Origin: Balneolaceae bacterium
GTDB taxonomy: Bacteria > Bacteroidota > Rhodothermia > Balneolales > Balneolaceae
DNA length: 32,000 bases
Direction of reading: 5' to 3'
NCBI GenBank assembly: GCA_017640605.1
Contig: JAEPQH010000020.1
Coordinates: 1-32,000 of the forward strand
The position numbers and the translations under genes are program-made. Shown piece by piece: positions 11,183 through 19,571 of this stretch (the stretch's first letter is position 1; each line of letters starts with the position of its first letter). The notes below the pieces were generated by a model. It ran no database searches, was not told where the DNA came from, and saw only the letters and a list, made by a program, of their open reading frames with translations.

Positions 11183-13036
11183 ATGGTTGGGAAAAAACAC
11201 AAATGGCTATTAATACTTACGGTTGCCTTTTTAAGCACTGGTATTATTGCCCAAACATTACCCGGACAGGTAGCAGCTACCGATGTTCAGGAGGAGGCTG
11301 CTAAGTACGAGCAGTATTACGAAGTAATTCTTAACAACGCTTTGTCGGATTATTACCGGCGCGGGACTTTTATAGTTGACGCCAAAGCAACTCTCGAAAG
11401 AGTATTGGTTCCTCGAGGCTACGAAGTAATAGAGGGAGAAGAACCAGTCAGGATCGAAAATTTACCGGGACTTCCTTTTGTCCCCCCAAATCTACAGCGA
11501 TCCACTAATGGTACTACCGACAGCCTAAAGGCATCCGGTTTTGATGCGCGTTTCAGACTGACCCGACTTAATATTAAAGTACTGGTTGATACTTCTTATA
11601 GTGATGAAGATGTCGAGTTTGTTGAAGAAGCTACCTCATTGATTGCTAATGCTGATCCTTTTCGGGGTGATATTGTAACTGTAGAAAAGAAAGTTTTTCC
11701 AAGAAGTGCCCGAGCTATTCAGCAAGATGTTCGAGAACGAGCTGCAAATAATCAGGATGCAGAGAAAGAAGAACCTCAGGTTGAGTTGTTGGAACCGGTA
11801 ACCAATCAACAAGAAAATGCAGAACCCGAAAAAAACATGTTTTTGGGAATCGATTGGAATAATCCGCAACACCTTATCTATGTAATTGCAATTTTAGGGA
11901 TACTATTCCTTATTGCTGTATTGTTCGCTCTGTTGCGAAAGCCATCAAAAAGAGATGAAGAATATAGAATGCCTCCAATGCAAGGGTATGAAGGAATGAT
12001 ACCGGCATCGGCAGCTGATACTAAAAAGGAAGAGCCAAAAGGTCCGGACGCTAAAACTTTGGCACAACACGAAGAAGATAAGACCTACGTAACCAATTCT
12101 TGTATAAGTCATCCGGATATAGTAGCCGACTTAGTAGGGCAATGGATTGCTAGTGATGATGAGCAAGGCATTATACGTTCTGCAAGATCACTTAGCAGCG
12201 TGGATGAGAAATTGATTAACGTGTTGGAACCCCATTTAAAAGTAGAACACTACGAATCGGTTAAATTTGCTATTCAAAATTTAGAGCCTATTCCAATTGA
12301 TGAAAAAATAGAAGAGGTAAAGGCATTGCGACGAAGCATGCAGCAGGTTAATACTAAAAACGGTACTGCTGATTCCGGCTCTAATCTGTTCGATTTTGTA
12401 TATCAATTAACAGACGTTCAATTATTACACTTAATTAAAGAAGAATCGGACGAATTGGTGGCAATTCTGTTAGCACAAATTGCAGGCGAGCGAGCTGGTG
12501 TAATTCTACAGAAAATGGAGGATCAGAAACGGATATCAATCCTTCTTAAAATGGGAAAGATCAATAATATCCCAATATCGGTGTATAAAAAAGTGGCGGC
12601 CCATTTCTCCAATAAAGCCTTGTCGGTTTCGGATATGAAATACGTTGCTGCAGATGGTATCGACTCGATACTTACCACTTTGGAAACAATGCCGCTTTCG
12701 GAACAAGACGATTACGTGCGATCGATAGCCGAACAGGATCTGAATCTGGCAAAGCGTATCAAGAAGTTCTTTATTGGTTTTGATGATCTACCGAAAGTTA
12801 AAGACGAGTTTGTTCAAAGTGCACTGGAGGATATCCAAACAGAAACACTAATTCTGGCACTTAAAACAGCACCAGCTGCAGTGCGAGAAAAGATTCTGAA
12901 AGTGCGTCCGAAACGAGAGCAGCAGCTCATCCTTTCTGAAGTAGATAATCCTGCTGAGGTACCAAAAGCAAGTATTGAAGACGCACAGAAAACAGTATTG
13001 TATGCTGTTCGCCGAAAAATGAAGACTGAGGGCTAA
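11183..13036 (+). CDS. Membrane protein combining an FliF/SctJ-like periplasmic segment, a TM helix and an FliG-like cytoplasmic region (rotor-like fusion)
   Basis: 617 aa.
- Signal/anchor 'WLLILTVAFLSTGIIAQ'.
- Periplasmic aa ~123-173 'RLTRLNIKVLVD...ANADPFRGDIVTVEKKVFP' resembles the C-terminal periplasmic motif of FliF (RLSVAV...RGD..V....F).
- TM helix at aa 231-251 (nt 11873-11935).
- aa ~401-617 align by eye with the Thermotoga/E. coli FliG middle and C-terminal domains ('FFIGFDDLPKVKDEFVQSALEDIQTETLILALKTAPAAVREKILKVRPKREQQLILSEVD...IEDAQKTVLYAVRRK').
- An SD-like AGGGG lies upstream of the ATG. Confidence 0.8.
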   Translation: MVGKKHKWLLILTVAFLSTGIIAQTLPGQVAATDVQEEAAKYEQYYEVILNNALSDYYRRGTFIVDAKATLERVLVPRGYEVIEGEEPVRIENLPGLPFVPPNLQRSTNGTTDSLKASGFDARFRLTRLNIKVLVDTSYSDEDVEFVEEATSLIANADPFRGDIVTVEKKVFPRSARAIQQDVRERAANNQDAEKEEPQVELLEPVTNQQENAEPEKNMFLGIDWNNPQHLIYVIAILGILFLIAVLFALLRKPSKRDEEYRMPPMQGYEGMIPASAADTKKEEPKGPDAKTLAQHEEDKTYVTNSCISHPDIVADLVGQWIASDDEQGIIRSARSLSSVDEKLINVLEPHLKVEHYESVKFAIQNLEPIPIDEKIEEVKALRRSMQQVNTKNGTADSGSNLFDFVYQLTDVQLLHLIKEESDELVAILLAQIAGERAGVILQKMEDQKRISILLKMGKINNIPISVYKKVAAHFSNKALSVSDMKYVAADGIDSILTTLETMPLSEQDDYVRSIAEQDLNLAKRIKKFFIGFDDLPKVKDEFVQSALEDIQTETLILALKTAPAAVREKILKVRPKREQQLILSEVDNPAEVPKASIEDAQKTVLYAVRRKMKTEG

Positions 13037-13038
13037 CT

Positions 13039-14124
13039 ATGAAAAGAATAGCACTGCTTGGTTTTCTGATACTTATAGTTGGTAGGGTAGAAAATTCTCA
13101 GGCACAAACTCATGAAGAAGGTGTGCCCTACCAGATGGAATTGATTACAAATCAGATGGTGGATCAGTTAAACGATATTCCTGCAAACATACGTAGGGTA
13201 GCTGTTTATAAGATGAACTATAACGCCATGCGTTTTACGATGCAGGAAGTAGAATTCATCCGAGGTGAAATAGAATCATCTCTTCGAACTTATGCTGGCC
13301 TAACCGTACTTTCACCTCCTGAACTGGAGCCCAATGATAAAATGAAAATCTTTGGTAGCGACAGTACTCTTCAGATCCTAAATATTCAAGGTAGGTCGTT
13401 AGCTGATGTTTCTCCTGATTTTTTATCCGAAATTACTACAAAATATGGTGTAAATGGATTAATCGAAGTAGGACTACAGCGCCGTAACCCTGACGGCTTG
13501 ATCTTGTCGATACGAATGATGAACCCAAGCTCAAGAGAAATTGTATGGTCAAAAAGTTTTATTGCCAATCCATTTGAAGTGGTTGAGAAAGTAGATAAAG
13601 GCAATACTTTTATTCTTTCCTTTGGTGCCGGTTCGATGCAAACAGATTCTAAATTCAGGGCAGACACTTCTTTTGCCAATCAGGATACTTCGATAAGTAA
13701 TCCAGTGTTAAATTATGGAGCTAATTTCACTTATCGCCAGCCATTAAACAAAGAAAATAGTGCCTACTTAGGTTTTACAGGAGGTATAGATATTTTGCGT
13801 TCTACTCGAGATGAGGATTTTAACCTGATGCTTCTTCAATTGGGTGTTACCTATTATCAGGCATTAACAACCGAAAAGAACGAGGATATTGATGATTATC
13901 GAATGATGGTATTTCTTAATACCAATGTTAAGTTTCCAATTAGCTCAACCAAAGGTGAATTGTTTACTGCAAAGCCGGGTATCATGTTTAATATGAGTAA
14001 AAACCTTGGTTTATCATTTTACACAAGCTTGATTTTATCTGGCGAAGAATTGACGTTAAGCAATAACGATAGAATAACTTACAATAAGGTTGGATATGGT
14101 GTACATGCGGTTGTCAGATTCTAA
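13039..14124 (+). CDS. Secreted envelope protein: periplasmic alpha/beta N-domain plus a probable small outer-membrane beta-barrel
   Basis: 361 aa. Cleavable signal 'LLGFLILIVGRVENSQAQ'. The C-terminal half has alternating hydrophobic beta-strand patterns and ends 'GYGVHAVVRF' (a terminal Phe, typical of OMPs). The start is 2 nt after the upstream stop, with GAGGG upstream. Confidence 0.6.
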   Translation: MKRIALLGFLILIVGRVENSQAQTHEEGVPYQMELITNQMVDQLNDIPANIRRVAVYKMNYNAMRFTMQEVEFIRGEIESSLRTYAGLTVLSPPELEPNDKMKIFGSDSTLQILNIQGRSLADVSPDFLSEITTKYGVNGLIEVGLQRRNPDGLILSIRMMNPSSREIVWSKSFIANPFEVVEKVDKGNTFILSFGAGSMQTDSKFRADTSFANQDTSISNPVLNYGANFTYRQPLNKENSAYLGFTGGIDILRSTRDEDFNLMLLQLGVTYYQALTTEKNEDIDDYRMMVFLNTNVKFPISSTKGELFTAKPGIMFNMSKNLGLSFYTSLILSGEELTLSNNDRITYNKVGYGVHAVVRF

Positions 14125-14716
14125 AATTATACTATTACTCGCGTTGGTAGCATTTGCTGGCTATAGTTGTAAATCAACCGAAGCTGCACAAGAAACTACG
14201 CAACCAACTATGCAGTCCATGACAGATGTTGGAACCACTGAAAGTGCCAATCAAGCTGAAAAAGGAGAAGAACAGGGCAATCCTGTTATAGTAACTTACC
14301 GTAATGCAAGTTCAGCCATACAGATAACTTTAGACCCGAACAAAGATGAGTTTTATCTGGATCTAAAAGGAATGACTCCCACAGAATCCGACTCGATTAT
14401 TGTGGTGGATTCATCAATGGTTAAAAATCGTGCCCGCGATATTCAGTCTTTGTTGTCGAGTTATCGAAAAGCACAGGATTTATTTTATCTGGGGGAATAC
14501 AGAGAAGCTTTAGATGAGGTTGAAAAGACTCTCAAGATTCAAGAAACAGCAGATGCATACGCTCTTAAAGGAACCATCTTTTTCATGATGGAAAACATCA
14601 CAGCAGCGCGGGCAAATTGGAATAAAGCGGTTCAAATGGATCCAAATATTCCGGTGCCTAGCATACCTGAATTAGAAACTTTAATAAACGAACTACGAGA
14701 GGACGGTGGACAATGA
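14105..14716 (+). CDS. TPR-repeat protein, probable lipoprotein
   Basis: About 203 aa counted from ATG 14105 ('MRLSDSKIILLLALVAFAGYSC'; the track ORF starts at 14090). TPR-like repeats 'YRKAQDLFYLGEYREALDEVEKTLKI...AYALKGTIFFMMENITAARANWNKAVQMDP'. The stop overlaps the next start (ATGA). Confidence 0.65.
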   Translation: MRLSDSKIILLLALVAFAGYSCKSTEAAQETTQPTMQSMTDVGTTESANQAEKGEEQGNPVIVTYRNASSAIQITLDPNKDEFYLDLKGMTPTESDSIIVVDSSMVKNRARDIQSLLSSYRKAQDLFYLGEYREALDEVEKTLKIQETADAYALKGTIFFMMENITAARANWNKAVQMDPNIPVPSIPELETLINELREDGGQ

Positions 14717-15531
14717 GGCTTTCGTTAACCAATATACTAGGGGTAATTTTCAGCATTGGCATATTAGTATTCGGAATAACCGAAATAACCAATGTAACAA
14801 CAGTATTAAGCTCAATCCCGGCATTATCGCAATATACATTTTTGAATCTGCCTAGTTTATTTATTGTGATGGGTGGGATTTTAAATGCGGTTTTCATCAC
14901 CTATCAACCAAAATATGTAGGGCAGGCTTTCGCAGGACTTTTTTACCTATTCAGTCAGGCAAAAACTTCGTCAAAAACATTGGAAAATGATTTGGGTGAG
15001 ATGCTGGTGTGGAATGATCAGATCAAAAACGACAGAGTAAATGCACTCTCGAAATTGGAAGACGAACACACAGGAGAAGTCTCAGGTTATTTATTCTCAC
15101 TTATGAGTACCAATTATTCTAATGATGATATCAAATCCTTTGGCTCTAATCACATTGAAGAACAGTATTTTCGCCAACTTGTAGTAGTAGATGTGCTGCG
15201 TGCTATGGGTGCTGCCGCGCCTTCCTTTGGTATGTTTGGTACCTTATTTGGACTGGTAGTTATGCTTGGACAACTCGAAAATCCATCGGGTATGGGGCCT
15301 GGACTTGCAGCTGCTTTAATAACGACTTTATACGGTATTTCGCTTGCACGATTTATTTTTTACCCGATTGCAGAAAAAATTAAAAATGTAGCTCAGCTCA
15401 ATCGATTTCGTGAATACTTTATCCTCGAAGGTGTATTGTTGATTAATGAGAAAAAATCATCGTTTTACATTCAGGATAAGTTGAGCACTTATTTGAGAAG
15501 AGATTTCAAAAATAAGCAAGTAGCAGACTAA
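14713..15531 (+). CDS. motA: MotA/PomA-type stator proton (ion) channel subunit
   Basis: 272 aa. Two N-terminal TM helices, a ~95-aa cytoplasmic loop, then 'AAPSFGMFGTLFGLVVML' and 'GLAAALITTLYGISLARFIFYPIAEKI'. This is the MotA-type TM3/TM4 signature with both conserved prolines, not the ExbB/TolQ pattern. Confidence 0.85.
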   Translation: MRLSLTNILGVIFSIGILVFGITEITNVTTVLSSIPALSQYTFLNLPSLFIVMGGILNAVFITYQPKYVGQAFAGLFYLFSQAKTSSKTLENDLGEMLVWNDQIKNDRVNALSKLEDEHTGEVSGYLFSLMSTNYSNDDIKSFGSNHIEEQYFRQLVVVDVLRAMGAAAPSFGMFGTLFGLVVMLGQLENPSGMGPGLAAALITTLYGISLARFIFYPIAEKIKNVAQLNRFREYFILEGVLLINEKKSSFYIQDKLSTYLRRDFKNKQVAD

Positions 15532-15543
15532 GGGAGGCTTCCG

Positions 15544-16236
15544 GTGATTAAGCGCGAATACGGCGGGAATTCAGATATTCAGGAAGAACATATTGAGGAT
15601 CAGGAATGGTTGCTCACATATAGTGATATGATCACCCTGTTGCTTGCATTTTTCGCAATGCTTATTGCCGTTTCTTACGTTGATTTAAATCTGTGGGAGC
15701 AAATGAAGCAAGGACTACGGTCAGAAATATCTAAACAAGAGGATGTTCGTACCCCACTAGCTGAAGTAAAAGCAGATTTGGATTCCCTACTGGCTGAAGA
15801 AAAATCACAAGGCTTAGTAGATATTACACTCGACCGTGACGGTATAAAATTATTCTTTTCTAGTAGCTCGTTTTATCAATCGGGTGAAGCTCAATTATTA
15901 CCGACCGGCCAGAGAATTATCGACAAAGTAACACAAGCCATGAACGCGCTGGATTTCTACAAATTTAATGTAGATGTAGAAGGACATACAGACAATGTTC
16001 CCATCAACACGCCAATATATCCGTCGAACTGGGAATTGTCGGTGGCAAGAGCCTCCGGTGTGGTAAAATATTTTATTGAAGAAGGTATTGAAGCAGAACG
16101 ACTTAAAGCGTCGGGCTATGCCGATACCAAGCCGGTAGTGCCACATGTGGATGAAGAAGGCAGGAATATTATTGAGAACAGAGCCCTCAACAGAAGAATT
16201 GTTGTACGTATTTATTATCAATTGGCAACAAACTGA
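15544..16236 (+). CDS. motB: MotB-type stator subunit with an OmpA-like peptidoglycan-binding domain
   Basis: 230 aa. GTG start preceded by GGGAGG at a 6-nt spacing. 'WLLTYSDMITLLLAFFAML' is the MotB TM/plug signature with the channel Asp. The C-terminus has 'GHTDNVPI...NWELSVARA...GYADTKPV...NRRIVV' (OmpA family). Confidence 0.88.
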   Translation: MIKREYGGNSDIQEEHIEDQEWLLTYSDMITLLLAFFAMLIAVSYVDLNLWEQMKQGLRSEISKQEDVRTPLAEVKADLDSLLAEEKSQGLVDITLDRDGIKLFFSSSSFYQSGEAQLLPTGQRIIDKVTQAMNALDFYKFNVDVEGHTDNVPINTPIYPSNWELSVARASGVVKYFIEEGIEAERLKASGYADTKPVVPHVDEEGRNIIENRALNRRIVVRIYYQLATN

Positions 16237-16259
16237 TTTTTTAGGCACTAATCCGACAG

Positions 16260-16278
16260 TGCTTCAGTTATTGAAGCA
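16260..16278 (+). promoter_or_regulatory. Stem-loop ending 3 nt upstream of the start codon of the outer-membrane barrel gene
   Basis: TGCTTCA-GTTAT-TGAAGCA (perfect 7-bp stem). No T-run follows. The ATG at 16282 begins 3 nt after the stem. Confidence 0.4.
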
Positions 16279-16281
16279 AAA

Positions 16282-19215
16282 ATGCCTATGAAAATACTAT
16301 TACTTTCGCTGTCACTACTTTTTTTCGGGATTCAACAAGTACACGCTCAATCCATATCCGACTCAACCACTACCAGTATATTTTCGTCCAAAGCTCTATA
16401 TCAGTCAGATGTTTTAAGGGCGTTATCAGGACTCGCACCGGGGCTCATAATTCACTCTACAGGTGGAGTTTCCGGAACAGGGACAAATCCTGTTTTTCGA
16501 AGCTATTCGAGCTTAAATGCGCCCAGCAATCCATTAATAATAGTTGATGGCGTCAGGTTTGATGGGGCAAATAATCATAATAGCAGCGCATTTAACGGAG
16601 GAGGTTCTCTAGTTACTCCAAACCGATCTTTCGATCTTCATCCTTCCGAAATTGTTTCGGTGAATGTTTTAAGCTCACTAGAAGGTACATTTTTGTACGG
16701 CGAAGAAGCCACAAATGGAGTTATTGAAATTACAACCAGAAGAAACGCAATCGATTTAACCAGAGAAGGCTACGAGCTTACAATAGATCAAAGTGTTTAT
16801 TCCACGAGTATGTCGAGCCGACCGGATTATCAAAACCAATTTGGAATGGGTTTTAACGGTCAATATGGTCCATTTTTTAGTTCCTGGGGAGCCTCTTTTG
16901 ATAGCCGGGATCCTGCAGATTTTCCATCCAATTTTAATGGACTGGATAACGATGGTGCTGTATTAGTAGATCATCCTTATGGTTTTTACAATTTCACAAG
17001 TGATGGTGCTCCTGATTATGCCACCGAAGTGTATCGCTATGAAGCAAGAGAAACCCCTACCGATGCTTACTTCAGAAATGGTATTGGAAGTCGTTCATTT
17101 ATAGATTTGAATTACAAAAAAGGGAGCACTTCCTGGAGTTTCAATTACGCCGGAAATCAGGAAGAAGGCTTTACGCCCAACAATGCTTTTCTTAAAAACA
17201 GTTTTGGAAGCTCCGTTAAGTATCAACTTTTAGATAATGTACATGGTACATCAAGTTTACAGTTTTTATTTACGGATGTTAAAATGCCACCCTTATCGGC
17301 AGGAAGTGGAAGTGGAGTTGTAGAAGGTGGAGCAACAACAGGAGCATTCACCTACCTGTTTTTTACTCCGAGGTCTATCGACTTAGCACTACCAAATAGT
17401 TCGCCCGATAATAATGGCTTTACCTATTACCGCCCGGATATAATTCATCCTGTTTGGTTTGCAAATAATGCCTCAACCACTAATGAAACCAATCGCATAC
17501 TGGGTAAAACTGCCCTTCATTTTACTCCCTCAGATCGATTTCAATTCAACTACACCTATACATTTGATAGTTACGATGAGAATCAGGAGTACAAGCTAAA
17601 TCCTACGGGGACTTTCAACTTTCCTTATGTATTAGGGCTCTACCAAACCATTGAAATTGATCGAACGCTTCTCGATAATTTTGCACTTGCTACGTATCGT
17701 CCAAATTTAGGGAATAGGCTCTTTGCAGAAGTGCGACTCGGTGGGCATTATATGAGCGAAAATATTAATGAAAAAGGGCTGGAAAGCACCGATATACGAG
17801 AGTATGGTGTTTTTGAACACGATAATTTTAGGGTTCAAAGCTCTACGAATTCATTTACCAACGAGTTGATGGAAAGAGAGTTTGAACGCCGATCGTTTGG
17901 TGCATTTGGCTCGATGGAGTTAGAGCTTGATCGATGGATATATACTGATGTTGGCGTTCGCAGGCAGTGGAATCAATCGCTGCATCAACAAGATATGAAT
18001 GCGGTTTATCCTTACGTCACTTTTGGTGTAATTCCATCAAATGTGCTGGTGGATAATGACGAAATCCTGAGCAATTTAGATTTCTCATTTTCTTATTTCA
18101 CATCAGGCAGATCGATTTTAACAGAACTTGAAATTTTAGTACAAGATCGGCCCAGTGTTGGGTTAAACGATGAGTTAAAACCAGAAAGATCAATTGAAAA
18201 ACAAGTTGCGGCAACGGTCGGTCTATTTAAAGATCGAATTTCTTTCTCCGGGAAATATTATCAAAGAATACATACCGATTTAATCTCCAGAATTGCTGTA
18301 AATCCTACACAAGGCTTCGGCTCGATACTCGATAATTTACTCGAAATGGAAGTAGAGGGCTTTGATGCTCAGGCGGTATTAGTACCACTCGAAGGAAAAG
18401 TTAATTGGAAGATTATTTCGAATTTTAGCACCACCAAAGCAGACGTTAAAGAATACACAGGTACTTTTAATGCAATTCAATTAGGAAATAGCCAATCTTT
18501 TCGGGGAAATCTGGCTCAGGTTAATGAACCTTATCTAAGCATGTATGGTAGTACCGTTTTACGGGTTACAAGTGATATTCAGAGGGCAGATCCCAATATG
18601 AGATCTGTTCCCATTGGCACACCAATTATCGATAATAATGGAAATTACCTTACCGATCAGAATGATATTATCGGAAACCCAATACCCGACTGGAATCTCT
18701 CTACCTTACAACAAGTACGGTACAAGAACCTAAGCTTTTCTATTCAGATTGATTATCAAAGAGGGGGCGACATGTACAGTAGCTGGATTAGTTCACTGGT
18801 TGGAAGGGGTTTAATTTCATCAACGCTCGACAGAGAAGAGACATTTATTATTGAAGGTGTAAAATTTGATGGTACTCAGAACGATATTGAGATCAGTAAG
18901 CAACAATACTATTTCAGTAATCTGGGGTTTGGCCCCGATGAATTGAGAGTTTATGATATGACTCATTTACGCATTTCTCATATCGGGTTTTCATATCAAG
19001 TTCCGCAGCAATGGATTACAAAAACAGGGTTTAAAGAGGTAATTATTTCCTTTTCGGTAGAAAATGCCTTTCTGAAAATGTACAATATTCCAGAAGGTAC
19101 AGGTTTTGATCCGAACGTAAACTCGAATGGGGCAGGACTTAACAATCTAGGTTTTGAATACTTAACCGGTCCCGGTGCTCGTAGATTCGGTGGTTCGTTA
19201 CGAGTTCGCATATAA
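16282..19215 (+). CDS. SusC/RagA-like TonB-dependent-receptor-family outer-membrane protein (plug plus large beta-barrel)
   Basis: 977 aa. Signal 'LLLSLSLLFFGIQQVHAQ'. Plug-like region 'DVLRALSGLAPGLII...NPLIIVDGVRFDG...EGTFLYGEEATNGVIEITTRR'. The remainder is long and rich in aromatic/Gly beta-strands, ending 'RFGGSLRVRI'. Confidence 0.8.
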   Translation: MPMKILLLSLSLLFFGIQQVHAQSISDSTTTSIFSSKALYQSDVLRALSGLAPGLIIHSTGGVSGTGTNPVFRSYSSLNAPSNPLIIVDGVRFDGANNHNSSAFNGGGSLVTPNRSFDLHPSEIVSVNVLSSLEGTFLYGEEATNGVIEITTRRNAIDLTREGYELTIDQSVYSTSMSSRPDYQNQFGMGFNGQYGPFFSSWGASFDSRDPADFPSNFNGLDNDGAVLVDHPYGFYNFTSDGAPDYATEVYRYEARETPTDAYFRNGIGSRSFIDLNYKKGSTSWSFNYAGNQEEGFTPNNAFLKNSFGSSVKYQLLDNVHGTSSLQFLFTDVKMPPLSAGSGSGVVEGGATTGAFTYLFFTPRSIDLALPNSSPDNNGFTYYRPDIIHPVWFANNASTTNETNRILGKTALHFTPSDRFQFNYTYTFDSYDENQEYKLNPTGTFNFPYVLGLYQTIEIDRTLLDNFALATYRPNLGNRLFAEVRLGGHYMSENINEKGLESTDIREYGVFEHDNFRVQSSTNSFTNELMEREFERRSFGAFGSMELELDRWIYTDVGVRRQWNQSLHQQDMNAVYPYVTFGVIPSNVLVDNDEILSNLDFSFSYFTSGRSILTELEILVQDRPSVGLNDELKPERSIEKQVAATVGLFKDRISFSGKYYQRIHTDLISRIAVNPTQGFGSILDNLLEMEVEGFDAQAVLVPLEGKVNWKIISNFSTTKADVKEYTGTFNAIQLGNSQSFRGNLAQVNEPYLSMYGSTVLRVTSDIQRADPNMRSVPIGTPIIDNNGNYLTDQNDIIGNPIPDWNLSTLQQVRYKNLSFSIQIDYQRGGDMYSSWISSLVGRGLISSTLDREETFIIEGVKFDGTQNDIEISKQQYYFSNLGFGPDELRVYDMTHLRISHIGFSYQVPQQWITKTGFKEVIISFSVENAFLKMYNIPEGTGFDPNVNSNGAGLNNLGFEYLTGPGARRFGGSLRVRI

Positions 19216-19300: not shown

Positions 19301-19459
19301 ATGATGGAAAGAGATATTCGAAATATTATGATGCAGTTGGAAATGCTGTTGGAGGAATACCCTGAAGCAAAATTCTACATTTATAATGGAATTAGAACTA
19401 TGGTTTCAGATTTACTCAACTCTGTAGACTGCATTGACGACTTGAGAGAAGAGTCGTAA
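19301..19459 (+). CDS. Small hypothetical ORF (52 aa), not in the supplied track
   Basis: ATG 19301 to TAA 19457-19459. The product 'MMERDIRNIMMQLEMLLEEYPEAKFYIYNGIRTMVSDLLNSVDCIDDLREES' looks helical and acidic. GAGAGGG lies upstream. Hairpins follow. I recognise no homology. Confidence 0.3.
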   Translation: MMERDIRNIMMQLEMLLEEYPEAKFYIYNGIRTMVSDLLNSVDCIDDLREES

Positions 19460-19535: not shown

Positions 19536-19571
19536 AAAAGCCTCACTGGAAAGTGAGGCTTTTTCTTTTTT
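19536..19571 (+). terminator. Rho-independent terminator closing the 11183-19459 transcription unit
   Basis: AAAAGCCTCAC-TGGAAA-GTGAGGCTTTT hairpin followed by TTTTCTTTTTT. An additional hairpin CGGCTCGC-n12-GCGAGCCG lies at 19491-19518. Confidence 0.75.

Follow-up and report, generated by a model that had tools for sequence, protein, structure and literature searches.

Why should a large SusC-like outer-membrane barrel be encoded directly behind a MotAB gene pair, and could the ion motor beside it take over the part that TonB plays for other barrels of this kind? The question is raised by a stretch of 32,000 nucleotides from the genome of a Balneolaceae bacterium (assembly GCA_017640605.1, contig JAEPQH010000020.1, positions 1 to 32,000 of the forward strand; hereafter the window), in which motB, the last gene of a five-gene module that also encodes FliF/G-like, TPR and MotA proteins, ends at 16236 and is followed on the same strand, 45 nt further on, by the start codon of a gene for a 977-residue barrel protein. 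An earlier note on this DNA had correctly described this spacing and had suggested that the linkage to MotAB and a FliG-like protein might reflect an alternative energising partner for the barrel, or a role for the barrel in anchoring the module to the outer membrane. Our analysis does not support either suggestion. We lean instead towards the reading that the barrel is a functional, lineage-specific derivative of SusC that came to lie behind motB through a genus-level accident or as a late addition, and it is best read as a genus-specific neighbour of the motor module and at most an accessory to it.

The distribution of the two elements carries most of this argument. Of 121 family genomes, 31 contain a clear orthologue of the FliF/G-like gene, which serves as the marker of the module. 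Among 301 genomes sampled from the phylum, such orthologues occur within the family only, and one other family gives more distant matches (28-29% identity). A barrel orthologue is found in eight of these 31 module-bearing genomes, all belonging to the window's genus, and in each of the eight the distance from the start of the FliF/G-like gene to that of the barrel gene downstream is about 5.1 kb. Among 18 loci that were fetched, the five module genes are syntenic in every case, and a barrel lies 3' of motB only in those same eight; in other genera the next gene after motB encodes a glyoxalase, a beta-lactamase, an SRAP or a GH43 protein, so that orthologous clusters do not, as the earlier note had asked, always end with a barrel. 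In the genus g12, the module is present in seven of nine sampled genomes, and none of the nine contains a SusC-like match at E <1e-30. The barrel therefore shows neither co-occurrence with the module nor a fixed position beside it across lineages, being limited to one genus and lost again from one of its species. This variable presence is an outcome that the earlier note had itself named as speaking against its proposal.

The loss within the genus is seen in a complete genome (G105) that has the same flanks as the window, namely HK-GNAT upstream and orf52, SSS and GH109 genes downstream, and that lacks the barrel, orf173 and an upstream YCII-ECF sigma pair. In this genome motB and orf52 are separated by 365 AT-rich bases (L007, G105:C1:2849000-2864000). 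In a tree of the five concatenated module proteins, G105 falls inside the barrel-bearing clade as sister to G052 (support 100/98), which makes the absence of the barrel a secondary loss that left the module intact. Some 14 of 19 flanking and module proteins compared have evolved roughly 1.3-3 times faster in G105 than in G052, and the ratio is about 0.9-1.2 for PAS, TPR, SSS, GH109 and NTPt. A module-specific acceleration following loss of the barrel was considered and rejected, since the flanking methylmalonyl-CoA mutase and acyl-CoA dehydrogenase are equally accelerated.

The conserved FliF/G-MotAB module would also appear to be complete without this barrel. The model of its 361-residue protein (predicted local distance difference test, pLDDT, 80) comprises a periplasmic alpha/beta domain and an eight-strand barrel ending in Phe; in structure comparisons the former resembles LpoB (template-modelling score, TM, 0.65) and the TolB N-domain, while the latter resembles OmpA, NspA and OmpX (TM up to 0.60). 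On the strength of this model, the module would bring its own outer-membrane component wherever it is present. The proposal of an energising or anchoring link is further undercut by this OmpA-like barrel protein and by sister barrels that occur away from MotAB, as described below. The analogy behind it was the ExbB-ExbD-TonB complex with its TonB-dependent transporters, in which an inner-membrane ion motor of the 5:2 type is coupled to outer-membrane barrels. The Agl-Glt gliding apparatus of Myxococcus likewise couples an inner-membrane 5:2-type ion motor to outer-membrane barrels. Unlike the barrels of both systems, the one examined here is absent from most copies of its module (23 of 31), and Pfam profiles of the cluster proteins identified no TonB-like or GltG/J-like periplasmic linker.

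What kind of protein, then, is the barrel? Its open reading frame, profile hidden Markov models and a structural model all agree with the earlier description of a plug-like N-terminus followed by a large barrel. Its sole Pfam match, a weak one, is to Plug (PF07715; residues 41-147, 26.4 bits against a cut-off of 23.9), as expected for a generic TonB-dependent-transporter plug. The SusC/RagA model TIGR04056, which the earlier note had proposed to compare with such generic models, aligns over model positions 107-961 with 228.2 bits and remains below its family cut-off of 368.25, whereas 525-887 bits are obtained for the genome's four canonical paralogues; the SusC signature motif TIGR04057 also falls short (18.7 bits against 46.2). 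The late start of the TIGR04056 alignment bears out the statement that the carboxypeptidase-regulatory-like extension common in SusC is lacking, and neither PF13715 nor PF13620, which describe this N-terminal domain, matches the protein. A hidden N-terminal domain is impossible, given that only 10 open codons precede the start codon in frame (open frame of 987 residues).

An AlphaFold2 model built on 54 homologues (pLDDT 85; predicted TM score 0.84) consists of the plug followed by about 22 long strands. In a Foldseek search with this model, ranks 1-22 are all SusC/RagA structures, whereas classical TonB-dependent transporters reach a TM of 0.44-0.50 at most. The top structure, BT2264 (TM 0.80-0.85), is part of the BT2261-2264 SusCD complex of Bacteroides thetaiotaomicron (PDB 5FQ6/5FQ7/5FQ8) and is also the top sequence match (E 3.5e-37, 20% identity). 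Both proteins have a plug in a large barrel, but BT2264 is TonB-linked and works with a SusD lid and further lipoproteins, while the protein in the window lacks an adjacent lid, the extension and a conserved TonB box. Judging from the model, it is a genuine SusC-fold barrel that has drifted outside the curated family.

The nature of this drift becomes clear from comparison with the canonical SusC proteins of Balneolaceae, which are its nearest relatives (37-41% identity over plug and barrel; P0013-P0032). These proteins differ from it in having a CarboxypepD_reg extension, a lid gene next to their own, short branches in the tree, and an invariant TonB box, DVVVTAFGI, with about 30 residues between it and the first conserved motif of the plug. 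The barrel protein has a clear Sec signal, ending in VHA and followed by QS in a pattern that is equal across all orthologues, then a 17-residue tail, and then directly that plug motif. In seven orthologues the tail conserves only "DS" and one Lys, and in two it contains Pro; its mean column identity is 0.38, as compared with 0.70 for the plug, where conservation is highest, and 0.60 for the barrel domain, which places it within the lowest 5% of 17-residue windows. It is also modelled with a pLDDT below 50. No conserved TonB box N-terminal to the plug, such as the earlier note had proposed to look for in residues 24-60, was found in the alignment with canonical paralogues and the seven orthologues. 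As read from these alignments, the box has been replaced by a short and variable remnant.

A lid gene is missing as well. As the earlier note had observed, no SusD-like gene lies 3' of the barrel, and its place is taken by a 52-residue open reading frame (orf52) and a terminator. We also considered orf173 as a lid-like partner and rejected it, as its product lacks a signal peptide and it shows no homology to the genes that flank the sister barrels. In the levan SusC Bt1763, deletion or mutation of the TonB box, removal of SusD and removal of the N-terminal extension each abolish function (PMC7782687). Bt1763 shares the family fold with the barrel described here (Foldseek ranks 15-22) and differs in that each of these three elements is essential to it, whereas the barrel naturally lacks them all. 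The canonical "pedal-bin" import cycle, with its TonB and lid, therefore cannot be assumed for this protein. A literature phrase search for orphan or TonB-box-less SusC proteins returned nothing.

This state appears to be older than the association with motB. A search of 5.8 billion proteins recovered a tight group of orthologues (972-978 residues, at least 48% identity), a few other extension-less proteins of about 1000 residues (around 40% identity), and then canonical Balneolaceae SusC. In a maximum-likelihood tree, 13 extension-less barrels form one clade (Shimodaira-Hasegawa-like approximate likelihood-ratio support 100) that is sister to the canonical clade, with the motB-adjacent type on a long stem (0.83 changes per site) and with long internal branches. 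In this genome each of the four canonical SusC genes has a SusD-type gene next to it; the nearest relative among them, on contig C25, encodes a protein of 40% identity that comprises CarboxypepD_reg, plug and barrel, and its downstream neighbour is a SusD-like_2 gene (C25:961-4308 and C25:4318-6000). Other members of the extension-less clade are found between carboxyltransferase and DUF885 genes, as a tandem pair of barrels, or between PALP and AraC genes, and neither SusD nor MotAB was seen beside them in the contexts examined. The lid-less, extension-less state thus predates adjacency to motB and is independent of it.

The carboxyltransferase-barrel-DUF885 arrangement recurs among the sister barrels, once with a tandem pair of 1037 and 999 residues (L025:4549-10718; L022-L024), and the barrels at these loci retain a degenerate TonB-box-like sequence, DSVNTSFGI.

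From these comparisons we hypothesize that an ancestral duplicate of a Balneolaceae SusC with a SusD-like_2 lid lost its Ig-like N-terminal extension and its lid gene, and that the branch found here would have lost a further 20 or so residues, including the conserved TonB box. The product that remains would be exported by Sec and would hold its conserved plug within a barrel of about 22 strands. Its most likely role is that of a lid-less plugged barrel, uncoupled from TonB or weakly coupled to it, which might act as a surface receptor or as a slow, specialised channel.

The gene nonetheless shows the marks of being in use. Its frame is intact and full-length in eight genomes, and the ratio of nonsynonymous to synonymous substitution rates (dN/dS) is 0.084 for G000, the genome of the window, against G113, and 0.054 for G024 against G068, two pairs with unsaturated synonymous sites. 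These values exceed those of MotA and MotB (0.007-0.03) and are similar to that of the module's own 361-residue protein. Comparison of the C-termini further indicates that the beta-signal has been kept. Horizontal transfer was considered on compositional grounds and rejected, the GC content of the gene, both overall and at third codon positions, being like that of its neighbours. By these measures it is a functional gene under purifying selection.

How the gene is expressed bears on its tie to the module. A terminator scan found no terminator between motB and the barrel, the first terminator-like site past the module being that at 19536-19563, and because of this the barrel is probably transcribed by read-through. 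A sigma-70-like promoter directly upstream was sought and not supported, given that only weak 9-of-12 matches occur, inside motB, and that promoter-like sites are at the level of shuffled sequence. Shine-Dalgarno-like motifs precede the module genes and orf52, and none precedes the barrel, as judged from the regions upstream of 27 genes in the window. The 64-nt region around the start codon folds with a minimum free energy of -15.2 kcal/mol (RNAfold; z = -3.55, a stability reached by none of 200 shuffles); despite a GC content of 33% it ranks first in stability among the 27 gene starts, because an outer stem of UAGGCA and UGCCUA pairs the UG of the AUG. The same stem is present in G113, G097 and G024, while in the three distant orthologues a stem of about 10-13 bp joins an upstream AGUAGUU element to codons 3-6 and leaves the AUG in the loop (z of -0.7, -2.4 and -2.1), so that some stable stem encloses the start codon in all eight. 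Since the Shine-Dalgarno motif is lacking and the AUG lies within a stable stem, the barrel is probably translated at a low or conditional rate.

This stem is not the perfect 7-bp hairpin that the earlier note had placed 3 nt before the start codon and had proposed as a possible modulator of translation. The hairpin is indeed there, followed directly by AAA and the ATG, yet perfect 7-bp hairpins with loops of 3-8 nt number 13 in the window against 14.2 +/- 4.5 in shuffled sequence, which is the level of chance. Its 6-bp core is present in the five closest genomes, whose spacers are near-identical and offer no covariation, and is absent from G052, G088 and G079; as a conserved element it was rejected, with RNAalifold on the eight orthologous spacers giving -0.57 kcal/mol and no common structure. 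The proposal of translational modulation is thus weakly supported by the stem around every orthologue's start codon and not by the hairpin itself. Rfam returned nothing significant for the spacer or for the region 3' of the barrel. The motif AGGCACTAA (window 16243-16251), which here forms the 5' arm of the AUG-burying stem, lies 6-12 nt past the motB stop codon in seven of the eight barrel-bearing genomes, and a copy differing at one position is found in the 365-nt spacer of G105. A role as a regulatory site across the genome was rejected, with 32 copies against about 29 expected and no enrichment.

Several observations weigh against our preferred reading of a lineage-specific derivative placed behind motB by accident or late addition. 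The tree from which secondary loss is deduced rests on the module proteins themselves and not on independent marker genes. Within the genus, the barrel stays 45-53 nt past motB on the same strand with no intervening terminator, and it does so across lineages in which the protein has diverged to 48% identity, so that co-transcription and a genus-specific functional tie are possible. TonB boxes tolerate variation in sequence, the tail still contains "DS" and is beta-prone, and the genome encodes at least 12 TonB C-terminal domains; coupling to TonB through the remnant tail may thus persist. An immobile plug, moreover, would give no reason for its strong conservation.

These points give some room to other explanations. 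An unlikely one, though the least so, is that of an ordinary nutrient importer, driven by TonB through the degenerate tail and closed by a lid encoded elsewhere, which may serve sugar scavenging by the SSS and GH109 proteins. The search for tonB and exbBD genes proposed in the earlier note did find, alongside the TonB domains, three ExbB-type genes; canonical energisers are therefore available, and it is the barrel's handle that is missing, the tail being among the least conserved 5% of the protein and containing Pro in some orthologues. The lid could come from an orphan gene for a SusD-like_2 lipoprotein, next to which no SusC is encoded (G000:C29:71917-73563; L027:9918-11567). Its neighbours encode a thioredoxin-like protein, a glyoxalase and an OmpA-family protein that has thrombospondin repeats; orthologues occur in the four closest barrel-bearing genomes, and in G097 and G068 the gene is tandemly duplicated. 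The earlier note had held that a co-regulated SusD-like partner elsewhere would indicate an ordinary uptake pair, and a SusD-like gene does exist elsewhere; however, G052 and G088 keep the barrel with their only lid beside a canonical SusC, G079 keeps it with no SusD-like_2 match at all, and an orphan lid of related sequence (55% identity) is present in G105, which lacks the barrel. The barrel thus has no obligate partner in the orphan lid, although the two may pair facultatively in this subclade. One sister barrel lies near SSS and GH109 homologues in two metagenome contigs, but in the window orf52, orf173 and a strong terminator lie between the barrel and these genes, which moreover stay in G105 without it.

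We judge it rather improbable that the TonB-box-less barrel was recruited within the genus as an accessory outer-membrane element, positioned or gated by FliF/G-MotAB and co-transcribed as a sixth gene. The shared strand, the close spacing and the lack of a terminator until past orf52 in all eight genomes, the loss of the TonB handle from a protein whose conserved plug is left with no known energiser, and the joint presence or absence of the barrel and the upstream ECF sigma pair around the module would all fit such a recruitment. It fits less well with the 23 module-bearing genomes that have no barrel, with the intact module of G105, whose quicker evolution is matched by flanking housekeeping genes, with the module's own outer-membrane barrel protein, or with the existence of sister barrels apart from MotAB; and because the whole region is syntenic within the genus, adjacency is not specific evidence. 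More doubtful still is the stronger version, in which the captured barrel would work at the outer membrane as part of a non-flagellar motor of the FliF/G-MotAB type, its plug moved or its barrel positioned by the stator and rotor and not by ExbBD-TonB. That the gene is a decaying, functionless copy of SusC on its way to being lost seems hardly credible. Its long branches, the loss of three canonical features, its weak translation signals and its disappearance from G105 could be taken in that sense, but the frame is full-length in eight genomes with saturated synonymous sites, dN/dS is as low as in the neighbouring 361-residue protein, the plug is highly conserved and the fold is predicted with confidence.

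Positions of the barrel gene, its parts and its surroundings in the 32,000-nt window
Feature	Position	Strand	Basis
Five-gene module abutting the barrel gene	11183..16236	+	Pfam/NCBIfam matches, synteny in 18 loci
FliF/G-like gene	11183-13036	+	Pfam/NCBIfam
Gene for 361-residue protein (unk361)	13039-14124	+	no Pfam or NCBIfam match
TPR protein gene	14090-14716	+	
MotA gene	14713-15531	+	
MotB gene	15544-16236	+	
motB-barrel spacer, 45 nt, no terminator or Shine-Dalgarno motif	16237..16281	+	sequence, terminator scan, upstream regions of 27 genes
Outer stem UAGGCA (16242-16247) / UGCCUA (16283-16288), burying UG of the start codon and enclosing the hairpin	16242..16288	+	RNAfold
Perfect 7-bp hairpin, 5-nt loop, TGCTTCA / GTTAT / TGAAGCA	16260..16278	+	sequence
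Gene for SusC-derived outer-membrane barrel, 977 residues (P0001)	16282..19215	+	open reading frame
Signal peptide, residues 1-22, cleavage after VHA	16282..16347	+	read from translation
Mature N-terminal tail, residues 23-39, in TonB-box position	16348..16398	+	alignment to canonical paralogues
Plug domain, residues ~40-160	16399..16761	+	PF07715, column identity, model secondary structure
Large beta-barrel, residues ~161-977, ~22 long strands, hydrophobic C-terminal beta-signal	16762..19212	+	DSSP of model, Foldseek, C-terminus comparison
52-residue open reading frame (orf52) 3' of the barrel, own Shine-Dalgarno-like GAGAGGG	19301..19459	+	conservation, Shine-Dalgarno motif
Strong intrinsic terminator-like hairpin, 12 bp then T-run	19536..19563	+	terminator scan

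Some features of the surroundings deserve mention in their own right. The small acidic protein encoded by orf52 is found in all nine genomes of the genus at 88-98% identity, the barrel-less G105 included; its upstream region is conserved, and it is far better kept than the barrel. In a g12 genome, a homologue of 57% identity is encoded 1.7 kb past motB (L008:9603-9728). As for the module, we considered a Zorya defence system and rejected it, as ZorB models match MotB alone, and MotA, the barrel and the other proteins do not match. The genome also contains a paralogous cluster (G000:C16:22000-40000; L019:3055-11130) encoding a 998-residue TPR-repeat protein, a FliF/G-like protein (25% identity), a 185-residue open reading frame that tblastn matched to the TPR protein of the module, MotA, and a 627-residue MotB with an added SPOR domain, and no TonB-type barrel follows this cluster. 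MotA genes within FliF/G-like clusters number two, on contigs C15 and C16. A gene for FlhA, a true flagellar export component, and another MotA-family gene about 12 kb away are found elsewhere (G000:C21:61730-76534), and the organism may carry a real flagellum besides its two FliF/G-MotAB modules.

More generally, these results remove a misleading inference, namely that a motor of the MotAB/FliG-like type energises a TonB-type barrel, and work on the undescribed motor module of Balneolaceae can centre on its five conserved genes, including that of the OmpA-like barrel protein. They also define a small clade of SusC descendants that persist under purifying selection although they lack three elements shown to be needed in model SusC proteins, namely lid, N-terminal extension and TonB box. 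For the question of what role such a lid-less and handle-less plugged barrel has in the outer membrane, G105, having lost the gene, provides a natural comparison.

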